From a virus (taxonomy: Duplodnaviria; Caudoviricetes), in the IMG/VR virus record IMGVR_UViG_3300037461_001070, positions 6,721 to 70,720 of that record: 64,000 bases of DNA; one strand, written 5' to 3'. The notes under the pieces are model-generated. The model saw nothing but the letters and a program-made list of their open reading frames with translations, did no database searches and was not told the DNA's origin. Shown in pieces: positions 3,492-50,930 of this stretch. Every line of letters begins with the position of its first letter. The first letter of the stretch is position 1. A program made the position numbers and the translations under genes.

Positions 3492-3881
3492 ATGGCAAAA
3501 GAAAACAACATGTATATTGCCAATCTATCATTTTTTCTTAACTATGGAGATGGCACAAAAAATGATGAGATTGAATCAGAAATATTCAAGGTAGGATTTC
3601 AATCAAAAGAAAGTGTCCATTATGATCGAGCAAAAGGAGCTGGATTCCAGGATCTCGAACAAGACCAGGCAAATATCGCGACCGGACTTAAATTTATAGC
3701 CAGTCTCATCGAAAGTGTTTATCGTGTTAATGAAGAAAAAAATTTTAATCCATATATTGTGCTTGGATTTTCTGACATTTCAATAAACAATGACGTTGCC
3801 GGTAAAACCGGAGAATATGTTGCTGAAGTAAAATACAGATTATTAAGAGATATAAGCGTAAGTGGAAATATAAGGCTGTAA
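3492..3881 (+). CDS. Baseplate wedge / sheath initiator (gp25/GpW-like)
   Basis: Size, position before J-like gene, GAGFQDLEQD segment. Confidence 0.5.
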   Translation: MAKENNMYIANLSFFLNYGDGTKNDEIESEIFKVGFQSKESVHYDRAKGAGFQDLEQDQANIATGLKFIASLIESVYRVNEEKNFNPYIVLGFSDISINNDVAGKTGEYVAEVKYRLLRDISVSGNIRL

Positions 3882-16746: not shown

Positions 16747-17615
16747 AGATCAAGCAACTCCATTATTTTATTTTTTGTTCTTTCCGAAAGATCATTCTTT
16801 TTCATTTCAACCAATACATTGTCATGAAAATCAAATGATACATCGGCTTTCTTAATTGATTCTACGAAAGAACTTATTCTCGTCTCTCTTTCTTCCTCTG
16901 TTCTTAAATATATATCTGTTATTTTTGTGCTATCATTCGGAAGCATTATCCTGTCTACAGTTTCTTCTTCGGTATCTACAATATAAATTGATGGAGTATA
17001 ATCTTTATAGTCTGCTTTTTGAATATTTATACAACCGGGATTAACTACATTTTTTCCTTTTTTCTTGTAATGAAAAGCTTGATGATAATCTCCAACAAAT
17101 ATCCATTTCGCTTCAGGATATAGATCCAGCATATCTTGAGCGGTGAGAGCTTTTGTATTTGGAGGCAGAGATTTTATATCAGGAAATACAAGTTGATGTA
17201 TGAATATTATTCCATTTTCAGGTCCGGTCAGTTCATCATCAAAGTAAGCAGCTTTACCAAGAATATTAAGATTTGAGACACATGAATTTTCTATGGTCAT
17301 CATATGATTTATTATTCCGAAAGATGAATTATCAAGATTTTTAACGGAATGATATTGGAGATCGTGATTTCCGGCAATAGTATATATTCCATAATTTACT
17401 GATGTTGCAAACCTCATGAACAATAATTTAATTGGATCGGATACAACAGGGGTATCAAAAATATCTCCGACAATACAGATTGGGATATTCATTGCGTTTG
17501 CTTGATCTGAAATAAACGAAAGAACTTCTTTCTGTGACTTGATCCAATCCTCGTCTGCTCTACATCGAGGACGATCTGCACGTAAATGGAAATCCGCTGT
17601 TAATAAAAATTTCAT
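16743..17615 (-). CDS. Mre11/SbcD-like metallophosphoesterase nuclease
   Basis: ADFH, VGDIFD, AGNHD, GDYH motifs. Confidence 0.9.
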   Translation of the reverse strand: MKFLLTADFHLRADRPRCRADEDWIKSQKEVLSFISDQANAMNIPICIVGDIFDTPVVSDPIKLLFMRFATSVNYGIYTIAGNHDLQYHSVKNLDNSSFGIINHMMTIENSCVSNLNILGKAAYFDDELTGPENGIIFIHQLVFPDIKSLPPNTKALTAQDMLDLYPEAKWIFVGDYHQAFHYKKKGKNVVNPGCINIQKADYKDYTPSIYIVDTEEETVDRIMLPNDSTKITDIYLRTEEERETRISSFVESIKKADVSFDFHDNVLVEMKKNDLSERTKNKIMELLDL

Positions 17616-17812
17616 TCCTTACCCTTTGTTAATCCTTTCAAAGATCTTAAATATTTCCTGAGCATAATAATTTGTTCTTCATTTATTTGCGCCTGGGAAT
17701 TGTTGCCTTTATTATTTGAAATATATTCGTGGCAAGGACAACATAAATCACCATGAAATTCTCCCTGATCATTCCTATTCTCACAGCCATTGATAATACA
17801 TTTTTTACTCAT
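17612..17812 (-). CDS. Small Cys-rich hypothetical protein
   Basis: CIINGC...CCPC; translational coupling. Confidence 0.5.
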   Translation of the reverse strand: MSKKCIINGCENRNDQGEFHGDLCCPCHEYISNNKGNNSQAQINEEQIIMLRKYLRSLKGLTKGKE

Positions 17813-39722: not shown

Positions 39723-40236
39723 ATTGTTATTCAGAAAGTTCGACTTATGTTGCGGATAGTAAGCCGTTTTTATACAGTCTTTACCGCTTTAGACCATTAA
39801 CTTCTGAATTTACAATGTGAGCCGTGAAGAATTGAATCCTCAGTCCGTTGATCAATCAGACCCGTTACAGGCGGCTCTACCAATCGGATTAGTCTGGTGA
39901 ACAATCATGCCTGCAAACATGACCCAAAAACGTTGCCAGCGCGTATCCTCTTGATTCTTAAATCCTGATCCGATGTGCTATCAATGGTATCGATCCATTC
40001 GAACCAGGGTTATGCAGCCCTGATCATCACCTGATATAGCGACCATGCTAATTCCGCAGCTCTCTTAAAGGTTCTATGCGCCTTAAAGATGGATCTCAAC
40101 AACATCACTTTATCCATGTCGATCTAAAGGGGTTAACAAAAGATCTGGGGGTCATGGAATTCCTGGCTACTGGCATGTGGTTCAGGAATATAATATTGTA
40201 AAGATCCATCTTTAACACGCATATTTTATCTGCCTT
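39700..40236 (-). ncRNA. Candidate large structured non-coding RNA (about 540 nt)
   Basis: No ORF of 60 aa or more; about 42% GC by hand count versus AT-rich flanks; own promoter and terminator; multiple helices. Confidence 0.7.
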
Positions 40237-42288: not shown

Positions 42289-42461
42289 TATTTTCCTTTC
42301 CTTGTTTCTATTTCATCAAAAATTCTTCTCTTCAAATACTCAAATCCTTTCTCTATCTTTAAAACCTTGCCGATATGGATATCGAGATAATGGCAGTCAA
42401 AACATAGACCTGTTTTATTGAATCCAGTTAATTTCTTCCCACATATTTTACAGATTTTCAT
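42288..42461 (-). CDS. Small zinc-ribbon protein (57 aa)
   Basis: Hand-translated MKICKICGKKLTGFNKTGLCFDCH; ATGA/TAATG coupling. Confidence 0.65.
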   Translation of the reverse strand: MKICKICGKKLTGFNKTGLCFDCHYLDIHIGKVLKIEKGFEYLKRRIFDEIETRKGK

Positions 42462-44065
42462 TTTATTCTCTTCGATTTATATTCGTTTATAAGATATGTC
42501 AATAAACTTTTGTTCTCGGTGTCAGCTCCATCCATGACAGCATCAAGAGTTTTTCTTTTGTTGTCTAATAATGTAGCAATATCCTCTTCTATCGTATTCA
42601 GTCCAACCAAATAATATGCCATTGTCGGAACTTTTTTATTTACGTCGATGACACGATCCTCGGCTTGGTCATGATTACCAGGAACCCAATCCATTTCTAT
42701 GAAAGCCGTGTTTTCTGCTGCTGATAATTGTATTGCTGATCCCGCAGCTTTTATATTGCCTATGAATAATGTTATTTCTTTTTTGTTTTGGAATGAATCT
42801 ATTGCGTTTTGTTTCTTGGCCGGACTGTCGCCACCATAAAGAGTAACGCATCTCCCAGAAAATTTTTCGGCCAAAGCATCAACAACATTCCTGTGTATAC
42901 AGAACACAACAAGCTTTTCTGATTCAATAAATGATTCGATCCATTCCACGATCTGATCGAATTTGCCTTTTACTGCAAGTTGTTTTAACTTTTCAAATCT
43001 CACTACTGTCTCCGCCCATGCTGCTCTTCGTGCCGCCGCATCTCCGTCATTGTCTCGAATATACTGTATTATATCTTTTTCTGCTTCATCATATTCTTTT
43101 CTGTTGTTTAACTCCATGGGTATAATAGATCTTTCTTTATCAGGAAGATCAGAATACACTTCTTTTCTTAATCTTCTTATCATGAACGATTTTTTTAAGA
43201 CTTCATTAAGACGCTTGGTATTACTAGATCCTTTTCCAGAAGGATCTCTTGCCGCATCACAGTATTCGTTTAAAAATCTTTGATGACTATTGAACATCTG
43301 GCCATCAATTAAATTCAGAATATTCCAAAATTCAGAGGGTCTGCTCAGGATAGGTGTTCCCGATATCCCTATTACATGTTCTATATTCTTACCTATGTAT
43401 TTAACAGCTCTTGTTCTCATTGCTTTCTTGGATTTGATGAGGTGGCATTCGTCTAATATTAAAAGCTTGGGTTCAAATTCAAGAATCAAATCAATATATG
43501 TTGAGAGTATATCATAATTTATTATCAATATATTGTCTTTTTCAGATAAGGCATGGGAATGGCCCTGCACTATAACATGTTTTTCATGGGTAAGCCACTT
43601 CGAGCATTCCCTTGACCATCCTATTTTGTATGAGGCTGGAGGAACTATTATAGCCGGTCTTAGTTCGGGATGAAGAATCATGTATGATAGGGCTTGGATC
43701 GTTTTTCCTAGTCTCATCTCGTCGGCAAGCAAAGCCCTGCCGTTTAACTCTTCAAGTCTTTTCACGCCCTCGACCTGGAATGGCCTTAACGCTAACCCTA
43801 CAGGTAAATCGATTTTGAGAGGTCTGGAATTATTCTTGCCTGTCCAATTCTCTAATTCGCTATTTTTAGAAAATCCTAGCTCAGTGATTTTATCCAGACC
43901 ATATCTGTTTAATGGTATTGACCACTTCCCTGTCTCTCCATGATACTGTCGGCCCGGAATCGTATTTATTTCGGATATGAGTGATCCTTGTCTGCTCCGT
44001 GGAACTCTGACAGACAAATATATTCGGTCATCATTCAATACCGCATTTTTTATTTCAGATCGCAT
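42458..44065 (-). CDS. SNF2-family helicase/annealing helicase with HARP-like N-terminus
   Basis: LADEMRLGKT, DECH, SGTP, RRL, QAEDRV. Confidence 0.9.
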   Translation of the reverse strand: MRSEIKNAVLNDDRIYLSVRVPRSRQGSLISEINTIPGRQYHGETGKWSIPLNRYGLDKITELGFSKNSELENWTGKNNSRPLKIDLPVGLALRPFQVEGVKRLEELNGRALLADEMRLGKTIQALSYMILHPELRPAIIVPPASYKIGWSRECSKWLTHEKHVIVQGHSHALSEKDNILIINYDILSTYIDLILEFEPKLLILDECHLIKSKKAMRTRAVKYIGKNIEHVIGISGTPILSRPSEFWNILNLIDGQMFNSHQRFLNEYCDAARDPSGKGSSNTKRLNEVLKKSFMIRRLRKEVYSDLPDKERSIIPMELNNRKEYDEAEKDIIQYIRDNDGDAAARRAAWAETVVRFEKLKQLAVKGKFDQIVEWIESFIESEKLVVFCIHRNVVDALAEKFSGRCVTLYGGDSPAKKQNAIDSFQNKKEITLFIGNIKAAGSAIQLSAAENTAFIEMDWVPGNHDQAEDRVIDVNKKVPTMAYYLVGLNTIEEDIATLLDNKRKTLDAVMDGADTENKSLLTYLINEYKSKRIK

Positions 44066-44127
44066 TATAAACCCCTTTATCTATATTATGCAATTTCTAC
44101 ATAATTTCAATAAATTTTTCCAATAAA

Positions 44128-44151
44128 AAAGCCTACTTTTCAGTAGGCTTT
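44128..44151 (-). terminator. Terminator of the early operon
   Basis: AAAGCCTACT/AGTAGGCTTT stem with U tract on the minus strand. Confidence 0.75.
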
Positions 44152-44154
44152 GTC

Positions 44155-44361
44155 TTATCTTATTTTTGTTTCAGCGATTATCAGGTCAAGACAGCTCATG
44201 CAAATCCTCCAGTACCCGTATCCGCCTTTAGGAAGAGAGAAACATACTTCTTCCTTGACTATCTTTTTCCTGCATACCGAACACTCTCTTTTTGCTTTTG
44301 CTCTGTCAACAAGTCTTTTCGCTATCTCTTCCGGAAGCAGTGTGCCATAATATTTTCCCAT
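44155..44361 (-). CDS. Small zinc-finger protein (PARP-type-like CSVC...CMSC)
   Basis: Start moved to ATG 44361 behind the AAAGGGGTT SD. Confidence 0.6.
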   Translation of the reverse strand: MGKYYGTLLPEEIAKRLVDRAKAKRECSVCRKKIVKEEVCFSLPKGGYGYWRICMSCLDLIIAETKIR

Positions 44362-44431
44362 GATTGTAACCCCTTTATTTAATTTTAATTTGCTCATAAT
44401 GGCCCTTTTATAAAAGGGCCATATCAACAAA

Positions 44432-44962
44432 CTAATTCATGACAAGAATACTCTGCACTTCTTTGAATGCCGTCATTATCTTTTTCCTTTTCCAGCCTTG
44501 ACCGGACAGGTATGATCTGATCAATGTCTTATGCACTTTTTTTGACCATACTGTTTTGTCTTTTCTTTTTATCAGCTTCATCATATCCGGGGGAGGATTC
44601 AGGGCAAGATCAACACATATTTTTGCGTCTCTACCCAAACTATCAAGTGTTGCTCTTGCTATCGTGGTCTCGACATAATCATCGGGAACAGGATATTCCG
44701 GCATTTCCTCGAAATCAATTTCTTTGCTTTTAATCTCTCTCTGTTCCCGGACGTACCTGTACAGGTTAAAATAAAGTGAAGCACTCAGGTATGTACTGAA
44801 TTTCGCTCCATTTGATTTTTCCTGTCTCCAGTGATGACAGCACTCAACAAAAATCTGATTTCCTTCACTTTTCAGATCATCGTAATCCATTCCGGTAAGC
44901 CTAGATAAATTACGGGCGAAGGATTTTATCAGATTTTTATTCTCTTCATATAATTTTTCCAT
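44432..44962 (-). CDS. Phage sigma-factor-like protein (sigma70 region 2)
   Basis: YEENKNLIKSFA...DDLKSEG...KFSTYL. Confidence 0.7.
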   Translation of the reverse strand: MEKLYEENKNLIKSFARNLSRLTGMDYDDLKSEGNQIFVECCHHWRQEKSNGAKFSTYLSASLYFNLYRYVREQREIKSKEIDFEEMPEYPVPDDYVETTIARATLDSLGRDAKICVDLALNPPPDMMKLIKRKDKTVWSKKVHKTLIRSYLSGQGWKRKKIMTAFKEVQSILVMN

Positions 44963-45025
44963 GATACACCCCTTTTATTTAATTTTAAGACTTGCGGATC
45001 GGGCCTATGGCCCTCACCGTAAAGC

Positions 45026-45115
45026 TTAAAATGCGAGCATAGCAATTTTAAATATTGCTATCCATAGAAGTATTGACATGAATACTACCAGAAAAATATA
45101 TTTCATTCTTATCAT
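45026..45115 (-). CDS. 29-aa hydrophobic single-TM micropeptide
   Basis: Hand-translated MIRMKYIFLVVFMSILLWIAIFKIAMLAF; GGAG SD; ATGA overlap. Confidence 0.5.
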   Translation of the reverse strand: MIRMKYIFLVVFMSILLWIAIFKIAMLAF

Positions 45116-45558
45116 GATAAATCTCCTATGTTTTTGATAGTAAAATCGCCATACTCCATGCCATCATATGTAACACAGTCTTGTTTAAACACTAATTCAT
45201 TGTCAACATCACTCATGTCATATCTATAACCGAATCCTTGAATAAATTCAAATCTTACTGTTGACATGTATGTGAAGTGTACCCATTTGAGCGGTCCAAT
45301 CATTGGCCCATTCACTCCCCAATCCTGACCCTTTATTCTGTCGTCACCATTTTTGAATCCATGAATGAGGCAGATATACAGGCCCGGATCAATTTCTTGC
45401 TCTGGTGTTTCGTTCGTGATAGGAATACTTTTTATTTTTTCTTCCTCGTCTTCAATCGCTGTTCTCATACATTCCCGGCATCGTCCATTCTTAACCGTGA
45501 AATTATCGAATCCAGAACAATCAGAACAGAAACCCTTATTACTTTTTATTGTGATCAT
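45112..45558 (-). CDS. Early hypothetical protein with N-terminal Cys cluster
   Basis: CSDC...CREC; leader element upstream. Confidence 0.6.
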   Translation of the reverse strand: MITIKSNKGFCSDCSGFDNFTVKNGRCRECMRTAIEDEEEKIKSIPITNETPEQEIDPGLYICLIHGFKNGDDRIKGQDWGVNGPMIGPLKWVHFTYMSTVRFEFIQGFGYRYDMSDVDNELVFKQDCVTYDGMEYGDFTIKNIGDLS

Positions 45559-45643
45559 GATCTTAACCCCTTTTTAGATTTAAACCTTGACAAAATAGGT
45601 TTATGTCTGTACTGCATATGTGCAGTACAGTATAATCCTGCTT

Positions 45644-46081
45644 TTATAAACAACCATCTTCTTTAAAACTATAATAACCTTCCTCGGTTATTATGATGTG
45701 ATCAAGTACAGGAATTCCTAAAATGTTTCCTGCATCCCTGACACGGTTTGTTGTGATAGTATCCTCATGAGACGGTACTAATTCACCACTAGGATGATTA
45801 TGAGCGATAATCACAGACACAGCCAGCACTTCAATAGCTCCTGAAAATATTTCACGAGGATGTACTATTGCTTCTGATATAGTGCCAACACTGACTTCTT
45901 TCCATGCTATCATCTTGTTTTTATTGTTTAGATAAATAGCATAAAAATGTTCCTGTACTGCTGTACCAACTTTTGGCATAAGAAAATCATAGACTTTCTT
46001 GGGACTGTCTATGTATGCCATATCTTTAGGCATACTATCCTTTGACTTATAACGCAATTCAATTTCCTTAACTACTATCAT
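45644..46081 (-). CDS. radC: RadC-like JAB/MPN domain protein
   Basis: EHF, VHPREIF, AHNHPSG...PSHED, LDHIII. Confidence 0.9.
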   Translation of the reverse strand: MIVVKEIELRYKSKDSMPKDMAYIDSPKKVYDFLMPKVGTAVQEHFYAIYLNNKNKMIAWKEVSVGTISEAIVHPREIFSGAIEVLAVSVIIAHNHPSGELVPSHEDTITTNRVRDAGNILGIPVLDHIIITEEGYYSFKEDGCL

Positions 46082-46162
46082 GATTTTAACCCCTTTTTAA
46101 TTATAATTTTTTCGTGTCTCTGCACTATCAATATAATGCAGAGTACCAAAAAACTATCTGTC

Positions 46163-46756
46163 TTAACCCATATAACTTTTTCTGTCTTGATCATCAGTGT
46201 AATTTTCCCGGTCTTGTCCGGCGGTCTCTTCTTTTTGTTCTGACAGGTCGGTATACTTCCATACATCAAAGGAATTGCCTGACGCTACTTTCTCGAATTT
46301 TCCACCGATATACTCGGCAATTCTAGGATAGCATGAAGTACCGACTCCGCCCTCGTAATAGACGTGTTTGTACTTTCTATTTTCATTGTGATAGTTGCCA
46401 ATACCATAAGGGTGTCCGGTAAGATCGCCTTTTTCATGAAGCTTGTATTTAAGAAAAGCGTTAAACACTCCGGCAATAACCGTACTTTCCTTGTCATAAC
46501 CACAACCACTACATGTAAATCCTTCGACTCTTACATACATCTGTGCTTGCCCATCTTTAAAACGAACGTCAGCCACCGCATGAGGATTTGATCCCCATGT
46601 GCGCGATCTCTTCCATTCAATTGAAATTATTATTGAATCTACTTTCAATTGATTGACTTCGCTTTCATAGAGCAACCGCTCTTTCTCTTCTTTCCGGGCT
46701 TGCTTCCTTGATTCGGCTCGGCTTAGTTTTTCTTCTGTTGTCATTCTTTTTGTCAT
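46163..46756 (-). CDS. Early hypothetical protein (GCGYDKES motif)
   Basis: 197 aa; leader element upstream. Confidence 0.6.
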   Translation of the reverse strand: MTKRMTTEEKLSRAESRKQARKEEKERLLYESEVNQLKVDSIIISIEWKRSRTWGSNPHAVADVRFKDGQAQMYVRVEGFTCSGCGYDKESTVIAGVFNAFLKYKLHEKGDLTGHPYGIGNYHNENRKYKHVYYEGGVGTSCYPRIAEYIGGKFEKVASGNSFDVWKYTDLSEQKEETAGQDRENYTDDQDRKSYMG

Positions 46757-46837
46757 GATTGTAACCCCTTTTTAGATTTTAAAACCGTAATGGTTTTATG
46801 TCTGTTCTGAAAATAATTTCAGAACAGTACAAAGTCA

Positions 46838-47530
46838 TTACATACTTTTCAAGAGCTCATCAAAGTAGTGGCGAAAATAATATCTTAAATCCTGTCTTGC
46901 CATTCTAATATTTTTCCCCTGTTTTATATGTTCGAAAATAAATTCAGGGTTTTTGTATCCTCTTAATTTTATCGCATTGAATAGAAGCGATGGCACAAAA
47001 TAATTTTCTTCGAAATGAGAAAATATATGAGGCGTACTAAAATTATCTTGAGGAAACATAGAACAATACCAGCAATCACCACCACCGGGATATTCGAGGC
47101 CATACAATCTTATCGAATCACAAAATCCTTTTATATATTTTGTGATAAGTTTTTCCAGCTTTTTTCTGGTCTCTACTATCCTTTTCTCTTCTTGTTCAGG
47201 TCTAGGATTAAGCACTACCTCTGATTTGATCTTGATTCCGTCAAATAATTCCTGTCTTCCTTTTTTGAGGCTGACATAGGGAACATTCTTTTCCGTAAAT
47301 ACTCGGAATGGGCAGAATCTATTGAATCTGTCTCTAGTAGTCAGGGTATTCCATCCCCCGGTATCAAGTACATAAGAATTATCAGCACTTATTTTTATGA
47401 TATCGGTTTCATGGAGACGGATGATCGCTATTTCATTTTCAACACGCAAATACGTGTTGTTAGCGATTTTCTTGCCCCTGCTTTTATCCTTAGCCTTTTT
47501 TGACAGCTCTATAGCGGTATCGTATAACAT
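46838..47530 (-). CDS. Early hypothetical protein (LDTGGWNTLTT motif)
   Basis: 230 aa; leader element upstream. Confidence 0.65.
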   Translation of the reverse strand: MLYDTAIELSKKAKDKSRGKKIANNTYLRVENEIAIIRLHETDIIKISADNSYVLDTGGWNTLTTRDRFNRFCPFRVFTEKNVPYVSLKKGRQELFDGIKIKSEVVLNPRPEQEEKRIVETRKKLEKLITKYIKGFCDSIRLYGLEYPGGGDCWYCSMFPQDNFSTPHIFSHFEENYFVPSLLFNAIKLRGYKNPEFIFEHIKQGKNIRMARQDLRYYFRHYFDELLKSM

Positions 47531-47607
47531 GATAGTAACCCCTTTTTAAGATTTAACGGTTAAACCGTTATAATGGCCCTGCACTATGGCAGGGGTCATA
47601 TAAGGAT

Positions 47608-47862
47608 TTAATTGTTATTCATGATTGTCTCGTACTGACTTAAAATATAGTCAACGTGCTCTTCATAACAGGAAAATGCAGAGGGCTGTTTTATTTTTCC
47701 ACTATAAACTTCATTCCAAAAAATATCTAGTCTTTCTATTTCTTTCAAAAAATTCTCTGCATCATCACCTTGCATGAATACTTCTGCATTATCCGTCAAT
47801 CTTGTTATGGTTATTCCATAACTTAGATTTTCATAACAGAATCTATTTTTATATTGTATCAT
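47608..47862 (-). CDS. Early hypothetical protein
   Basis: 84 aa; leader element upstream. Confidence 0.65.
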   Translation of the reverse strand: MIQYKNRFCYENLSYGITITRLTDNAEVFMQGDDAENFLKEIERLDIFWNEVYSGKIKQPSAFSCYEEHVDYILSQYETIMNNN

Positions 47863-47940
47863 AATAAAACCCCTTTTTAAGATTTAAACCTTTAAATAGG
47901 TTTATATGAGTGCAGGTATATATACCTGCACTCTATAACA

Positions 47941-48579
47941 CTACTTTTTGATCGGACACGGTTCCCGGTACATGAGAGGCGTTTTTGATTTTATTTGAGC
48001 CTTTAATTTTTTAAGGTGTTTGCTAATATCTTTTTTGATCTGTGACTCGGCAATACTCACGCCCTCTTCGAGACAGTAATTTTCATCACCGTAAAATCCA
48101 TAACACGAATCAATGACGCTACCTGTACTGTCTTCTACTACATAGGCATAGACTTGTCCGGTAAGGTATTGATCATAAGTCTCTACTTCATTTTTCAGAA
48201 ATTGTCTGACCTTTTCCTTTAATCGTGCCGATACTTTCTTGACACCGTATTCTTTCCTGACTTCATCAAGACTAACATAGATGATCCCGACCTGACCAGA
48301 ATCCCATGGACACGAAAATCCTGACGTGTTCATGGTAATGCCGCTATGGTCATAAAGAAATAACGGTAGCACTACATATTTATCATTATCAGCTATTTCC
48401 TTGACCTCATCTATGGTTAGATCATGCTTGTCTCCGAGACTGTACCGGCTATGGAAGCATACCATATGACCGAAATTATCCCATTCCGTTCTAGGGTTTA
48501 CCGGATCAAAGTCTTGTATGACTTTGACGTGATACGGTCCGACCTGCTTTTCTAAATAAACATATTCCTCTTGTCTCAT
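47941..48579 (-). CDS. Early hypothetical protein (YDHSG...WDSGQVG motif)
   Basis: 212 aa; leader element upstream. Confidence 0.65.
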   Translation of the reverse strand: MRQEEYVYLEKQVGPYHVKVIQDFDPVNPRTEWDNFGHMVCFHSRYSLGDKHDLTIDEVKEIADNDKYVVLPLFLYDHSGITMNTSGFSCPWDSGQVGIIYVSLDEVRKEYGVKKVSARLKEKVRQFLKNEVETYDQYLTGQVYAYVVEDSTGSVIDSCYGFYGDENYCLEEGVSIAESQIKKDISKHLKKLKAQIKSKTPLMYREPCPIKK

Positions 48580-48668
48580 GATTAAACCCCTTTTTAATTA
48601 TTTAAGTCTGCATTCAATTAGACTTATGTGAGTGCTGGAATAATTCCAGCACTATACAAGTCTACTTT

Positions 48669-48872
48669 TCAATGTGTCGGCACTAATTTAATATTTACTT
48701 TATCAATTAGACCTGCATTTTTCGCCCATCTTTTGGCAAGATTTTTATCCTGCCAATTTGACAGAATATGATCTTCTTTTTCTCGGCATATCTCCGATAT
48801 TGCCACTAAAACATTATAAAGATCATATTTGTCAATAAGACTCTCAATATAATCTTTTTCTTTCTGTGTCAT
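48669..48872 (-). CDS. Early hypothetical protein
   Basis: 67 aa; leader element upstream. Confidence 0.6.
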   Translation of the reverse strand: MTQKEKDYIESLIDKYDLYNVLVAISEICREKEDHILSNWQDKNLAKRWAKNAGLIDKVNIKLVPTH

Positions 48873-48980
48873 ATTAAAACCCCTTTTTAATTAAGATATA
48901 AAAGGCACTAAAACCTTTTAAAAAGGTACTGGAATAATATTAACACTATTCCAGTATAAATTTTAACGGGTTTTAAAATG

Positions 48981-49127
48981 CTATGACGCTTTGACTCTGA
49001 TAATAAATCTTTTGGTGCTGACCCTGCCCGTACTCAAGTTTTTAGTGGTCACAGTTTTAACGTGTACAATATGACCGGCACTATTTAATACTTGCTTCCA
49101 GCCAGTGCTGATTATAACTGTATTCAT
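48981..49127 (-). CDS. Early small basic protein (48 aa, MNTVIISTGWKQ...)
   Basis: Hand-translated; AAAAAGGGGTT SD upstream. Confidence 0.6.
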   Translation of the reverse strand: MNTVIISTGWKQVLNSAGHIVHVKTVTTKNLSTGRVSTKRFIIRVKAS

Positions 49128-49203
49128 GATTAAACCCCTTTTTAAATTTAAAGACTTGAGGAGATACCGCTATTATGATCTTGTTATAATAGCGGTTATG
49201 ACC

Positions 49204-49392
49204 TTAAATGTTTAAATCCCTGACAATGGTTCCAGCACAATAAAACGATTGACCGTCGCTATATATGGTTCTAATTCCTTCTCTTTCTTTTACTCTTTCT
49301 ATGACGGTCTTATTGTCTAAGCACTGTCTTAATCTCTTTTTTCTGGTCTCATATTTTTTCAATGTGAGGCCACTACTATGATATTGTATCAT
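49204..49392 (-). CDS. Early hypothetical protein
   Basis: 62 aa; leader element upstream. Confidence 0.6.
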   Translation of the reverse strand: MIQYHSSGLTLKKYETRKKRLRQCLDNKTVIERVKEREGIRTIYSDGQSFYCAGTIVRDLNI

Positions 49393-49457
49393 GATTAAAC
49401 CCCTTTTTAAAATTTGCTTGTATCTGCCTATTAAAAATAATAGGCAGTATAAACAAA

Positions 49458-49739
49458 CTAATTAAGACTGACAAGTTCATATTCACCGGATTTGATTTTC
49501 TTTCTGGTGATGTCAATATTTTCAGAAAGAAATAAATTTCTATATCTCCCGGTTGTGACCGAATAATTCCAGAACCTATTATCAAGATAGGTACGGTCAG
49601 GTGTCATTATTGCTATTATTGATTGATAACTTTGCAAGACCACACCATATTCAAAAATCAGAATAAATTGATTTTTTGACTGGAATTGTTCGACTCTTTC
49701 AAAAGTCCCGAGCTTTTCAAAAATTTCTTGTTTATTCAT
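49458..49739 (-). CDS. Early hypothetical protein (NQF...QSY...YSVTT motif)
   Basis: 93 aa; AAAAAGGGGTT SD. Confidence 0.65.
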   Translation of the reverse strand: MNKQEIFEKLGTFERVEQFQSKNQFILIFEYGVVLQSYQSIIAIMTPDRTYLDNRFWNYSVTTGRYRNLFLSENIDITRKKIKSGEYELVSLN

Positions 49740-50004
49740 ATTAAAACCCCTTTTTATTAAATTTTAAATCTCAAGGATAAGAAAGAATTAAATCAGGGAT
49801 ACAAACCATTAAGGCCACCTTTTATAGTGTAGTTTTTACAGTATTTAATAAAATTCTTTCCGCACCTTCAGACATAAAAAGGGGGGTTTTATCATTATTA
49901 TTTTTTTAATATTGTATTGTACTTAATACACATATTAAAACGTTTTAAAAGAGCGGTTAAGACTTTGCCTGAACGATTCCCACGATATCTTGACAGGCTT
50001 TTAA

Positions 50005-50160
50005 TTATGCTGTTCTTATCTTTCTTACTGCTTTACGGGTTGTGTAAATCTTTCCAGATTTGTCTTTAATCCAGATTGTTTTTACAAACATTTCCTGACC
50101 CTTGAGGTCATAGCATTTAATCCAGTTCGTTTCTTTTATGATGTTGCTTTTGTTTATCAT
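50005..50160 (-). CDS. First gene of the early operon (51 aa, basic)
   Basis: Hand-translated MINKSNIIKETNWIKCYDLKG; AAGAGG SD just after the promoter. Confidence 0.6.
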   Translation of the reverse strand: MINKSNIIKETNWIKCYDLKGQEMFVKTIWIKDKSGKIYTTRKAVRKIRTA

Positions 50161-50192
50161 TTTAAAACCTCTTATCTTTTCTTTATATAAAC

Positions 50193-50221
50193 AATATAAT
50201 AAAGATAATAAAGAATGTCAA
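50193..50221 (-). promoter_or_regulatory. Strong early sigma70-type promoter
   Basis: TTGACA-17-TATATT with an AT-rich upstream tract. Confidence 0.8.
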
Positions 50222-50930
50222 GTAAATAAAGAAAAAAAAGATAATAAATGAGAAAAAAAAATTAAAATAAATTGTGTAAGAATACAGAATAAAAGCAGGT
50301 AAATATATTATTTATTTAATTGTATGGATATATGTGATTGTTATATTAAATAAATAATGTTATATATATTAAGTGAAAATAAATGGAATAAGGGGGGAGG
50401 GAGGGAGCCATTATAATTCTATTTAAGTATAAAATAAAATAGTTTAATTGTATTCTTTTTATAAATCTATAGTCTTATGTGACATATTGTATCTTATCGG
50501 AAGCTAATAAACATGTATTTAATGCGAATATTACTGGAAATATCAAAAACCATGTTATATGGAGAATAGACTTCGTACACCCCTCTCTCAATTCCCTACA
50601 ATTTTTTCTAGGGTTCAATTTTTATATTACCACAAAATCATATAATATATTGTGTAAGAATTTAATTGGAATATATTATGGGCTCTGCCTTTCTTTTTAT
50701 TCCTTATCAGACCTTCACAGAGCTTCTACAGCGAATTCTCTGGCTTTAACCGGCCCTAGCCATCCCATCTCATATAAAATGCGGTACAGACGTTCCTATG
50801 CAGTGTCAGGACCAGAAAAAGGTAGTTCCAAAAAATATTCTGTAAAAAATTTTAAGGGTATCCCCATATTTAGTATTTTATTTTATACTTAAATAGAAAA
50901 AATAAAAATAATTTCTGGGGAACAGCATAA
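50222..50930. other. AT-rich divergent non-coding region, candidate genome end / packaging region
   Basis: Strand switch; very AT-rich; no convincing ORF. Confidence 0.4.

Follow-up and report, generated by a model that had tools for sequence, protein, structure and literature searches.

Why do so many genes of a phage early operon carry their own hairpin leader and the same ribosome-binding motif? We addressed this question in a 64 kb stretch of DNA (the window), which is part of a 70.7 kb contig of an uncultivated phage. On its minus strand, 14 co-oriented genes run from a strong sigma-70-type promoter at 50221 to a terminator at 44151-44128 and would form a single early operon (Table 1). 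An earlier, sequence-only reading had placed the limits of the operon at 50221 and 44128, and a promoter match and a hairpin with a T run were found at these two places.

The early operon and its ribosome-binding motif

The repetition of one ribosome-binding motif through the early genes, also claimed by the sequence-only reading, is borne out by counting. The window holds 11 copies of AAAAGGGGT where 0.69 would be expected, and every one of them is on the minus strand, from 44968 to 49754. Throughout the 70.7 kb genome AAAGGGGT(T/G) has 13 minus-strand copies, all within 44078-49753, and an ATG follows each of the 13 (A)AAAGGGGT(T/G) copies 5-9 nt downstream. AAGGGG stands upstream of 12 of the 13 early-block starts (all 13 if the ATG at 44361 is taken as the start) and of just 2 of 92 other genes; GGAG-type sites, which had been proposed for most late genes, occur at 51 of these 92. 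A special role for GGGG is weakly supported, since part of one relative's leaders use AAAGGAG. Spacers have a median of 81 nt in the early operon versus -1 nt among the tightly packed middle genes, and the early spacers measure 65-115 nt, the exception being the 271 nt spacer before gene 2. A lone plus-strand copy of AAAGGGGT(T/G), at 40126, is unrelated.

Most of the spacers had been described as sharing one layout, in which stem B, stem A and AATCT lead from the stop codon to the ribosome-binding site. Both stems are present in only around half of the 12 spacers, namely the ones that precede the ATGs at 48872, 48579, 47862, 47530, 46756 and 45558, and the four stems quoted as examples (CTGTACTGCA, CTGTTCTGAAA, GAGTGCAGGTA and AGTGCTGGAA) were all found, with perfect pairing; the layout is nevertheless less general than described, in that AATCT occurs in only four or five leader copies and gene 1 has no leader. 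The spacers before 49392, 46081 and 44361 form one long composite hairpin of 21-23 bp that lacks stem A, and those before 49127 and 44962 are weaker. Among the early products, one carries a RadC domain (E=3.7e-45) and another, of 176 aa, contains Sigma-70 region 2.

Table 1. Features of the early operon and its borders, in the order of transcription (window coordinates).
Feature	Position	Strand	Details
Early promoter, TTGACA-17-TATATT	50193..50221	-	Top sigma-70-type match in 43900-50500, 11/12 positions
Early gene 1, 51 aa	50005..50160	-	ORF; own AAGAGG ribosome-binding site, no hairpin leader
Atypical 271 nt spacer before gene 2	49737..50007	-	Ends in AATAAAAAGGGGTTTTAATATG; stretch at ~49876-49892 complementary to the ribosome-binding motif, the two paired by RNAfold; last 130 nt fold no better than shuffles (z=-0.6)
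Leader of 62 aa gene	49390..49460	-	Composite 21 bp hairpin, no stem A, then TTTTAAAAAGGGGTTTAATCATG; -20.9 kcal/mol, z=-5.7
Leader of 48 aa gene	49125..49206	-	10 bp stem B inside weak outer stem, stem A degenerate; z=-4.0; weak covariance-model match (E=0.003)
Leader of 67 aa gene	48870..48983	-	13 bp stem B, short T run (possibly an attenuator, from the sequence), stem A (TAAAAGGT/GCCTTTTA), ribosome-binding site; terminator-like site 48956-48927; model R1 match, E=5.6e-8
Leader of 212 aa gene	48577..48671	-	Stem B and stem A (TAAGTCT/AGACTTA), or 9 bp + internal loop + 10 bp; long form -24.4 versus alternative -20.7 kcal/mol; cognate 5' flank contributes -10.2 versus -4.8 kcal/mol shuffled
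Leader of 84 aa gene	47860..47943	-	11 bp stem B, stem A (TAAACCT/AGGTTTA), AATCT, ribosome-binding site; top model R1 match in window, 55.4 bits
Leader of 230 aa gene	47528..47610	-	Stem B (CCCTGC/GCAGGG), stem A (TAACGGT/ACCGTTA), AATCT, ribosome-binding site; R1 E=7e-6
Leader of 197 aa gene	46754..46840	-	11 bp stem B, stem A (TAAAACC/GGTTTTA), AATCT, ribosome-binding site; 21 bp long form beginning at stop codon
Leader of RadC-like gene	46079..46165	-	Composite 23 bp hairpin (10+2+11), no stem A; z=-6.2
Leader of 148 aa gene	45556..45646	-	10 bp stem B, stem A (TAAACCT/AGGTTTA), AATCT, ribosome-binding site; 22 bp long form from stop codon, isoenergetic with two-hairpin form (-19.8 versus -20.3 kcal/mol)
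29 aa gene	45026-45115	-	ATGA overlap with upstream neighbor; no leader
Weaker leader of sigma-factor gene	44960..45028	-	GC hairpin, AATAAAAGGGGTG; z=-1.25
Leader of last early gene (68 aa)	44359..44434	-	Composite 21 bp hairpin, no stem A, AAATAAAGGGGTT; z=-4.6
Intrinsic terminator closing the operon	44128..44151	-	10 bp stem, then TTTTTTATT
Post-terminator spacer	44063..44157	-	Ends in ATAAAGGGGTTTATAATG, the 13th motif copy, before SNF2-type helicase gene
SNF2-type helicase, first middle gene	42458-44065	-	Preceded by the 13th motif copy

Folding, strand bias and covariation

Compared with dinucleotide shuffles, 44 leaders from three phages fold with a mean z of -4.06, and folding favors the sense over the antisense strand in 26 of 31 leaders (mean difference -3.3 kcal/mol, p=4e-5). 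This strand bias points to a structure at the RNA rather than the DNA level, in agreement with the view of the leaders as a modular, repeated RNA element. Stem A, which sits just upstream of the polypurine ribosome-binding site, is 95% paired and has compensatory changes in six of its seven pairs, with none of 500 shuffles scoring as high, which supports the covariation noticed in the sequence-only reading.

Two near-isoenergetic folds are predicted: a long interrupted helix, or stem B together with the small stem A. In energy the long form differs from the two-hairpin form by a few kcal/mol; in 24 of 26 leaders it spans 17-23 bp, interrupted by bulges or internal loops (13 and 16 bp in the remaining two), and it begins at nucleotide 1-2 of the upstream stop codon in 18 of the 26. 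Its near-constant length may be partly a by-product of the constant spacer length. The AU-rich helices include some short ones (13-17 bp), and the upper stem ranges from 6 to 17 bp across leaders, which leaves no fixed geometry from which to predict a cut site.

The competing pairing is specific to each leader. The outer helix reaches -8.5 kcal/mol with its cognate flank; shuffling that flank leaves -3.3, and substituting the one from another leader leaves -3.8 (p<1e-6). On an alignment made without fitting to the structure, the helix has 37 double-change cells versus 18.8 in shuffles, of which 0 of 500 score as high. The alternative pairing proposed for the 5' arm of stem A is therefore real and covarying; it is strong in the relatives, but in the window it is clear only for the 48671-48577 leader, moderate for two and absent in two, and the outer helix within the window alone is significant in only one to three leaders. 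On these predicted energies the 48577..48671 leader appears to be the window's clearest switch. Promoter matches do not recur at a set place within the leaders, the sole sense-strand 11/12 match being the operon start, and T runs after leader stems are absent save for one terminator-like internal hairpin (48956-48927), the others being followed by ACATAA/ATAAG. An Rfam search of the leaders returned no family match; a sub-threshold match to mir-2001 at 47528..47610 was rejected as the leader hairpin read on the opposite strand.

Related phages and gene turnover

Three relatives (G1, G2 and G3), whose major capsid proteins are 68-77% identical, served for comparison. All four phages share the leader architecture, with consensus sequences that differ between them, and a covariance model of stem A with the adjoining ribosome-binding site matches only early operons, and only their sense strand, in the window and in G1, G2 and G3. 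Early gene content is almost wholly different among the relatives and gene order is partly permuted between two of them. A comparison of gene content and order had been proposed as a test, and it returned a leader design that is kept around contents that are not fixed; the leader resembles a standard adaptor through which exchangeable early genes would be expressed. Early gene 1, which has no Pfam match, is among only three genes common to the early regions of the window phage and its relatives, and its homologues (51-56% identical) open the early operons of G1 and G2.

Stem B sequences are unrelated between copies, and conservation is limited to short flanks (TTTAT/ATAAG and TAAG/CTTA). In G1, near-identical leaders of ~80 nt stand ahead of unrelated genes; G2 and G1 contain an inserted block whose leaders are of another style, and one relative has several motif sub-types within one operon. 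On this sequence evidence, it is plausible that the leaders seed recombination.

Discussion

Among the closest known systems are the RNase III sites in early polycistronic mRNA of T7/T3 and of Bacillus phage SP82 (SPO1 group). Like these sites, the leaders would be intercistronic in an early transcript of the host polymerase and are predicted to contain an interrupted hairpin of about two helical turns, which we propose would remain on the upstream message while the downstream message begins near a strong polypurine ribosome-binding site. As in SPO1/SP82, the operon includes a phage sigma factor gene; by analogy this could indicate an SPO1/SP82-like cascade, and we count it in favor of processing. 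The two differ in that cleavage is known in T7 and SP82 and proposed here, and in that the leaders occur in 10-20 copies per genome rather than ~5, form an additional covarying hairpin that shares its 5' arm with the foot of the competing long helix, and have a ribosome-binding site and spacer that are near-identical within a genome. The leaders bear no likeness in sequence to known RNase III sites.

Three other systems share parts of this design. Cluster K mycobacteriophages have start-associated sequences (SAS), conserved motifs of 11-13 nt that include the ribosome-binding site and lie just upstream of numerous start codons; roughly half of them are extended, with an inverted repeat directly in front, the consensus varies by phage subgroup, and the role of the motif is thought to be linked to expression (PMC3203893). 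The leaders likewise have a motif of ~13 nt with a ribosome-binding site shortly before starts (13 copies, at 5-9 nt), but the motif sequences and phage lineages are unrelated and the likeness is one of analogy, not homology; SAS are spread genome-wide rather than confined to one early operon, and the inverted repeats of extended SAS are conserved in sequence, with 17 bp half-sites, whereas stem B is kept as structure only. The PeSLs of T4-type phages are short repeated cassettes that flank small, variable, mostly uncharacterized early genes in hyperplastic regions, where repeats between genes could mediate modular shuffling (PMC2839356, PMC4122927); a PeSL, however, consists of a sigma-70-type promoter and a terminator hairpin, whereas our leaders have neither, include a ribosome-binding site and depend on a single promoter for the whole operon. 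Finally, ompA, aprE, ermC and the cryIIIA STAB-SD combine a small hairpin near the 5' end with a strong ribosome-binding site at a fixed spacing, as we propose for the leaders after a cut. These are primary 5' ends of single genes, unlike the leaders, in which the hairpin would arise only after refolding, internally and many times per transcript.

The reading we favor, to which we would give an even chance, is that the leaders are processing sites for a host RNase III-type enzyme that afterwards refold into a 5' hairpin beside a strong ribosome-binding site. The sequences show the repeats, both predicted folds, the covariation, the strand bias, the confinement to early operons, a design kept in four phages and the turnover of the intervening genes; we infer the cleavage, the enzyme and the stabilizing effect. 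Host RNA polymerase would make the early operon as one long transcript, in which each nascent spacer would fold into an interrupted helix of ~20 bp made of the stop-codon flank, stem B and a flank overlapping the 5' arm of stem A. Host RNase III would cut this helix, which resembles the early-gene sites of T7 and SP82 in size and shape; the RNase III domain PF14622 is absent from the phage genomes G000-G002, so that cleavage would need the host enzyme. The stem B hairpin would be retained at the 3' end of the upstream message and block 3' exonucleases, and the freed downstream flank would switch partner to form stem A. The new 5'-monophosphate end would then carry a terminal hairpin and, 11-18 nt further on, a strong, largely unpaired polypurine ribosome-binding site, two kinds of feature known to stabilize 5' ends, giving independent messages with similar expression regardless of the gene inserted. 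Secondarily, the leader DNA shared between genes would supply homology for gene swapping. A terminating ribosome would open the long helix at its base, and this might block cleavage instead of favoring it. In support of the analogy, PMC4838370 cites the cutting of SP82 early mRNA by B. subtilis RNase III (Panganiban and Whiteley 1983), PMC4838370 and PMC7509114 both cite the action of the SP82 polypurine ribosome-binding site as a 5' stabilizer, and PMC7509114 cites the stabilization of mRNA by the RBS-like SP82 sequence and by 5' stem-loops (Hue 1995, Emory 1992, Sharp and Bechhofer 2005).

A bolder version, which we hold only tentatively, is that the leader is a self-refolding, plug-and-play adaptor, triggered by a cut or by a terminating ribosome, whose DNA is a recombination site for the exchange of early host-takeover or anti-defense genes. 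A helix of ~21 bp would turn into a capped-like 5' hairpin beside a standard ribosome-binding site, and any inserted gene would be expressed alike. If true, this would be an integron-like cassette system that lacks an integrase.

Could the hairpins act without an endonuclease? They might be passive stabilizers or insulators that stall 3' exonucleases and separate the folding of cistrons, with the strong ribosome-binding site driving independent initiation and the alternative pairing without function. We consider this unlikely: it accounts for a stable hairpin in every spacer and for a ribosome-binding site accessible in either fold, and intercistronic stem-loops are known to stabilize upstream segments (PMC7509114), but it leaves unexplained the covarying stem A, the cognate-specific, covarying outer helix that competes with it, and the flanks TTTAT...ATAAG...CTTAAAT conserved in four phages.

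Alternatively, a ribosome at the stop codon could melt the base of the long helix, allow stem A to form and so tune initiation of the next gene without cutting, a translational coupling by RNA refolding with a topology like that of the ermC attenuator. The start of the long helix at the stop codon and the near-equal energies of the folds agree with such a sensor, yet the ribosome-binding site is predicted to be unpaired with a probability of 0.59 in the long form versus 0.66 in the stem-A form (p=0.06), with a large gap in a few leaders only. The site is mostly unpaired in prediction (0.58-0.70), and its near-equal exposure in both folds lends poor support to an on/off translational switch; the flip that the sequence-only reading had thought would expose it is weak for the same reason. 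The 3' arm of stem A is able to pair with the ribosome-binding site in some leaders, but these arms have no bias toward complementarity to it and three window leaders have no stem A, and we regard the sensor as quite unlikely.

The leaders might instead be an operator for a phage or host RNA-binding protein that reads the conserved single-stranded flanks and the ribosome-binding motif and toggles the entire early class together. Such a protein could repress or activate translation, or be a sequence-specific nuclease, after the model of T4 RegA or RegB (precedents reviewed in PMC3014915). The restriction of the motif to one temporal class, its linear conservation within each genome beyond the needs of ribosome binding and its divergence between genomes, as if co-evolving with a factor, all fit. 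We nevertheless think an operator improbable: no candidate protein was found, the early proteins having no RNA-binding or nuclease families, the mixture of motif sub-types in one relative's operon does not suit it, and operator reading alone does not explain two competing helices. Least probable is a mainly DNA-level, PeSL-like recombination scaffold (PMC2839356, PMC4122927), with repeats kept for gene gain, loss and shuffling and RNA folds incidental, for which the gene turnover and permuted order, the near-identical leaders of G1 and the inserted block in G2 and G1 speak, but against which stand compensatory changes and a sense-strand G-U bias that show selection on RNA pairing, stem B sequences too divergent to give homology, and leaders with neither promoter nor terminator. 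A role in recombination can coexist with the processing reading.

If the leaders are processing or stabilizing modules, they would allow uniform, independent expression of fast-changing small early genes from one promoter. Synthetic biologists use ribozyme or RNase insulators for this uniform-expression problem. The two competing, covarying helices offer a testable RNA switch with dozens of natural variants in four genomes. With a conserved adaptor and replaced cargo, such early operons are a hunting ground for new host-takeover and anti-defense genes, and the small covariance model provides a means to locate the early regions of related uncultivated phages.

Organization of the early operon

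The leaders that precede the early genes lie on a phage contig of 70,720 bp with 36% G+C, of which the window covers positions 6721-70720, whose two ends repeat each other and which has no close DNA relative among deposited phages; against these phages its terminase gives only distant matches (<=27% identity) and its sigma factor gives no protein match. A simple gene call divides the genome into three blocks: the plus strand carries the late structural genes, and the minus strand carries a long, tightly packed block with replication genes among others and, upstream of it, an early region. The sequence-only reading had described this last region as one transcription unit, and a promoter and a terminator were found at the two ends it had named (see the table). 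Between them lie 14 co-oriented genes, most without a known family. Those with family matches encode a RadC-like JAB protein and, next to last, a sigma factor; a match to Kyanoviridae Gp96 is weak and sub-threshold. An SNF2-type helicase is the first gene beyond the terminator. A promoter/terminator scan of the operon ruled out a promoter in each cassette, and N4-type hairpin promoters were rejected because the phage has no giant virion RNA polymerase (its largest ORF is 1898 aa).

Genes of the early operon are separated by a median of 81 nt, against -1 nt in the middle block. AAGGGG stands ahead of 12 of 13 early-block starts (all 13 if the ATG at 44361 is used) but of only 2 of the 92 other genes, 51 of which have GGAG-type sites, which bears out the suggestion that the early genes have a ribosome-binding site of their own. 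The related pattern AAAGGGGT(T/G) has 13 minus-strand copies in the whole genome, each 5-9 nt upstream of an ATG.

Features of the window and of related phages (window coordinates unless a locus is named)
Feature	Location	Strand	Description
Early promoter	50221-50193	minus	TTGACA-17-TATATT, 11/12 positions; best sigma-70-type match on this strand within 43900-50500
Terminator	44151-44128	minus	10 bp hairpin, then T run
Middle block	44065 down to 15513	minus	replication and other genes
AAAAGGGGT	44968-49754	minus	11 copies, all on this strand, vs 0.69 expected
Leader with clear long helix	48671-48577	minus	
Motif complement	49876-49892	minus (RNA)	AAAACCCCCCTTTTTAT, within the spacer of 271 nt that separates early genes 1 and 2
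AAAAAGGGG	49876-49892	plus	on this strand, found only here
Terminator-like hairpin	48927-48956	minus	13 bp, then CCTTTTT; spacer before 67 aa gene
AAGGGG-preceded gene	3492-3881	plus	outside early block; site AAATAAAGGGGAAAATACATG
AAGGGG-preceded gene	17612-17812	minus	outside early block; site AAAAAGGGGGTGTGG; with the preceding row, the only two
Relative G1	L236		IMGVR_UViG_3300037067_026376, 81.7 kb
Relative G2	L001, L237		IMGVR_UViG_3300035211_000203, 27.6 kb
Relative G3	L370 (G003:C34:28000-46000)		JAAEQR010000034.1, 90 kb phage-like contig in PVC-group MAG; capsid 77% identical
Paired G1 leaders	L236	minus	genes 9 and 12, and genes 10 and 14; identical or nearly so over about 80 nt; flanking genes unrelated
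GC-rich leaders	L237 (G2 genes 10-13; L001:9633-10796 is the same region)	minus	repeated AGCGGRC...GTCCCGCTGTAATGC hairpins, CCGGAC, AAAAAGAGG
GC-rich leader	L236 (G1 gene 5)		same style
G2 gene 8 leader	L237; L001:8434-8554	minus	3-4 tandem AAAGTATCTT right after stop codon, rest canonical

The leaders are structured RNAs

From 5' to 3', the leaders of the four phages that have them (the window phage, G1, G2 and G3) consist of a stop codon; a 5' flank, often with TTTAT; a small-looped stem B of 6-13 bp, unrelated in sequence between leaders; a 3' flank that ends in ATAAG and overlaps the 5' arm of stem A; stem A itself (TAAGnnn, loop, nnnCTTA); AAAT and an A/T-rich stretch; a polypurine ribosome-binding site; and the ATG. 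The stem sequences quoted in the sequence-only reading are all present and pair perfectly. Its general spacer formula held for roughly one spacer in two; of the remainder, three form a single long composite hairpin lacking stem A, and two are weak. The window leaders that lack stem A are single hairpins of 21-23 bp.

All leader structures are predictions. Since RNAalifold on MAFFT alignments gave no consensus structure, with stems of differing length and sequence out of register, we relied instead on constrained folding of each sequence, on a covariance model and on direct counts of pairs. The predicted structures, their covariation and their conservation are shown. In a set of 44 leaders taken from the window and two relatives, minimum free energies average 4.06 SD below those of dinucleotide shuffles. 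Of 31 canonical leaders, 26 are more stable as sense strand than as complement (mean difference -3.3 kcal/mol, Wilcoxon p=4e-5), as G-U pairs would bring about where the transcript rather than the DNA is under selection; this bias disfavours a DNA-level cruciform or origin. The leaders match no Rfam family, with sub-threshold chance matches only.

Stem A was claimed to covary, and it does. The covariance model R1, which describes stem A and the ribosome-binding site, has 35 matches at E<1e-4 in the window, G1 and G2 (L236 and L237), all of them in early operons and on the sense strand; the rest of the window and late regions of further relatives give no convincing match. On the R1-derived alignment, whose fit to the model makes this count lean towards structure, stem A is 95% paired, six of its seven pairs show compensatory changes, and double-change cells number 60 against 16 in shuffles (0/500 as high), while slid controls collapse.

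Two helices compete for the same strand

Two alternative partners are predicted for the segment made up of the 3' flank and the stem A 5' arm: it can pair with the 5' flank or with the stem A 3' arm. Folding of 26 leaders with this 3' arm barred from pairing yields a long interrupted helix of 13-23 bp (17-23 bp in 24 of them, median about 20), which in 18 of the 26 starts at nt 1-2 of the upstream stop codon and whose energy is within a few kcal/mol of that of the fold with both stems. The 5' flank contributes -8.5 kcal/mol, compared with -3.3 for a shuffled flank and -3.8 for the flank of another leader of the same phage (both p<1e-6).

Covariation of the outer helix was counted on a plain MAFFT alignment without fitting to any structure. 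Paired cells make up 71.9% against 62.1% in shuffles, double-change cells number 37 against 18.8, and the covariation score of 0.271 against 0.141 (0/500 as high) exceeds all slid controls. Among paralogous G2 leaders, for example, a TAATAACC/GGTTATTA pair in one is replaced by TAATAATC/GATTATTA in another. The alternative pairing put forward from the sequence covaries; within the window it is clear in a single leader, moderate in two and absent in two.

The adaptor is conserved while its cargo turns over

A terminase search recovered related contigs with structural proteins 45-80% identical. Two of these contigs, G1 and G2, extend upstream of the late genes, and each has there a divergent early operon with a hairpin spacer and a conserved motif ahead of nearly every gene. 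G3 was located through the capsid protein and then with the RNA model, all four of whose matches in a 3.3 Mb assembly fall on the G3 contig. This brings the genomes with the leader system to four so far. Homologues 56% identical to the window's 197 aa early protein are encoded on two Logan contigs (69.6 and 68.6 kb), which are possibly closer relatives. Besides the G3 contig in the PVC-group MAG, capsid homologues were found in prophage-like regions of Proteobacteria; those of 49-69% identity lie in Janthinobacterium, Burkholderiaceae, Methylobacter, Rhizobium, Hoeflea and Planctomycetota assemblies.

Gene content and order are not fixed. The window, G1 and G2 have only three early proteins in common: the product of the small opening gene, the sigma factor, and the helicase encoded just past the operon. 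Beyond these the window shares one early gene with G2 and none with G1, and G1 and G2 share five in partly permuted order. The window's 212 aa and 197 aa proteins have hundreds of relatives on unrelated contigs. Together these observations indicate that the cargo turns over and the adaptor stays. Relatives of the 212 aa protein (80 loci) have neither the motif nor the gene order in common with the window, and its gene is therefore a widely travelling cassette.

The motif itself differs between genomes. In G1 and G2 it approximates CTTAAAT followed by a few nucleotides, AATTATAAA(A)GGG(G)T, 7-10 nt and ATG, unlike that of the window, and G3 has mixed sub-types, some with AAAGGAG, which rules out GGGG as a required core and makes it a local habit. 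Exact-pattern scans of viral and metagenome collections with the window's motif gave single scattered matches with no repeated copies, which we take as chance; a scan with the relatives' motif re-found, among the matches listed, only G1 and G2, the rest being chance.

A proposed role in RNA processing

We give even chances to a model in which the leaders are host RNase III-type processing sites that refold and stabilise the downstream message. The early transcript would be made by the host polymerase, and the interrupted helix of about two turns between cistrons would be a target for RNase III. A search for a phage-encoded RNase III found none, so the host enzyme would be needed to act on the leaders. 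Refolding after the cut would place stem A at or near the new 5' end, with the ribosome-binding site 11-18 nt downstream. In T7, RNase III sites are likewise interrupted helices of about two turns between the cistrons of the early transcript, and by analogy the leaders may follow the same logic as phage RNase III sites. As cited in PMC4838370, B. subtilis RNase III has sites in SP82 early mRNA (Panganiban and Whiteley 1983). Work cited in PMC7509114 (Hue 1995, Emory 1992, Sharp and Bechhofer 2005) attributes message stabilisation in SP82 to a sequence resembling a ribosome-binding site and, more generally, protection of 5' ends to terminal stem-loops and to strong ribosome-binding sites. The sigma factor at the end of the window's early operon is a further likeness to SPO1/SP82.

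Recombination is a plausible second role for the leaders. In its favour are the two pairs of G1 leaders that are near-identical ahead of unrelated genes, and the gene block with GC-rich leaders inside the G2 and G1 operons. The paired leaders suggest recent duplication or gene conversion and are ready substrates for deletion or circle formation; the GC-rich block looks like a module inserted from another lineage. Because the long helix starts at the stop codon, the leaders could possibly be linked to the end of translation on the upstream gene. Uniformity of the linear motif inside each genome, together with its divergence from one genome to the next, would be accounted for by a protein operator, but we found no candidate protein. 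An on/off translational switch through leader refolding is poorly supported, since the ribosome-binding site is nearly as accessible in the long form as in the stem-A form (unpaired probability 0.59 vs 0.66, p=0.06); the value is 0.58 for the complete free leader and 0.70 for RNA beginning at stem A. The compensatory changes and the strand bias speak against recombination at the DNA level as the sole role.

Comparison with known systems and further observations

Cluster K start-associated sequences (PMC3203893) resemble the leaders in having a motif before starts and upstream inverted repeats in the same layout, but their repeats are conserved in sequence and spread over the genome. The PeSLs of T4-type phages (PMC2839356) have the same genomic ecology, with shuffling mediated by repeats, but are built of different parts, as the leaders hold neither promoter nor terminator. 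We found no description in the literature of a leader in which two covarying helices compete, the base of one lying at the stop codon of the upstream gene, and which is present in 10-20 copies per operon and kept across a phage lineage.

The stretch complementary to the repeated ribosome-binding motif, in the spacer before early gene 2, is paired by RNAfold with the ribosome-binding site of that gene. It may be a relic of an inverted leader, or an anti-ribosome-binding-site element acting in cis or in trans. Two similar complements lie upstream of the G2 operon, and short ones in G1 and G3 could be chance. The hairpin at 48927-48956 scores as terminator-like and may be an internal attenuator dividing the operon into two expression levels. 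Relatives found through the helicase are too distant and have no such leaders. One of them (L238, IMGVR_UViG_3300025128_000415) carries a different repeated element, the 18-mer TGTACGTCATGTTCTACA or similar, in ~24 copies within 15 kb. Locus L228 (IMGVR_UViG_3300037484_000452) carries the 14-mer CGATGCAGTAGGCG in 21-23 copies, which may be a tandem repeat within a gene.
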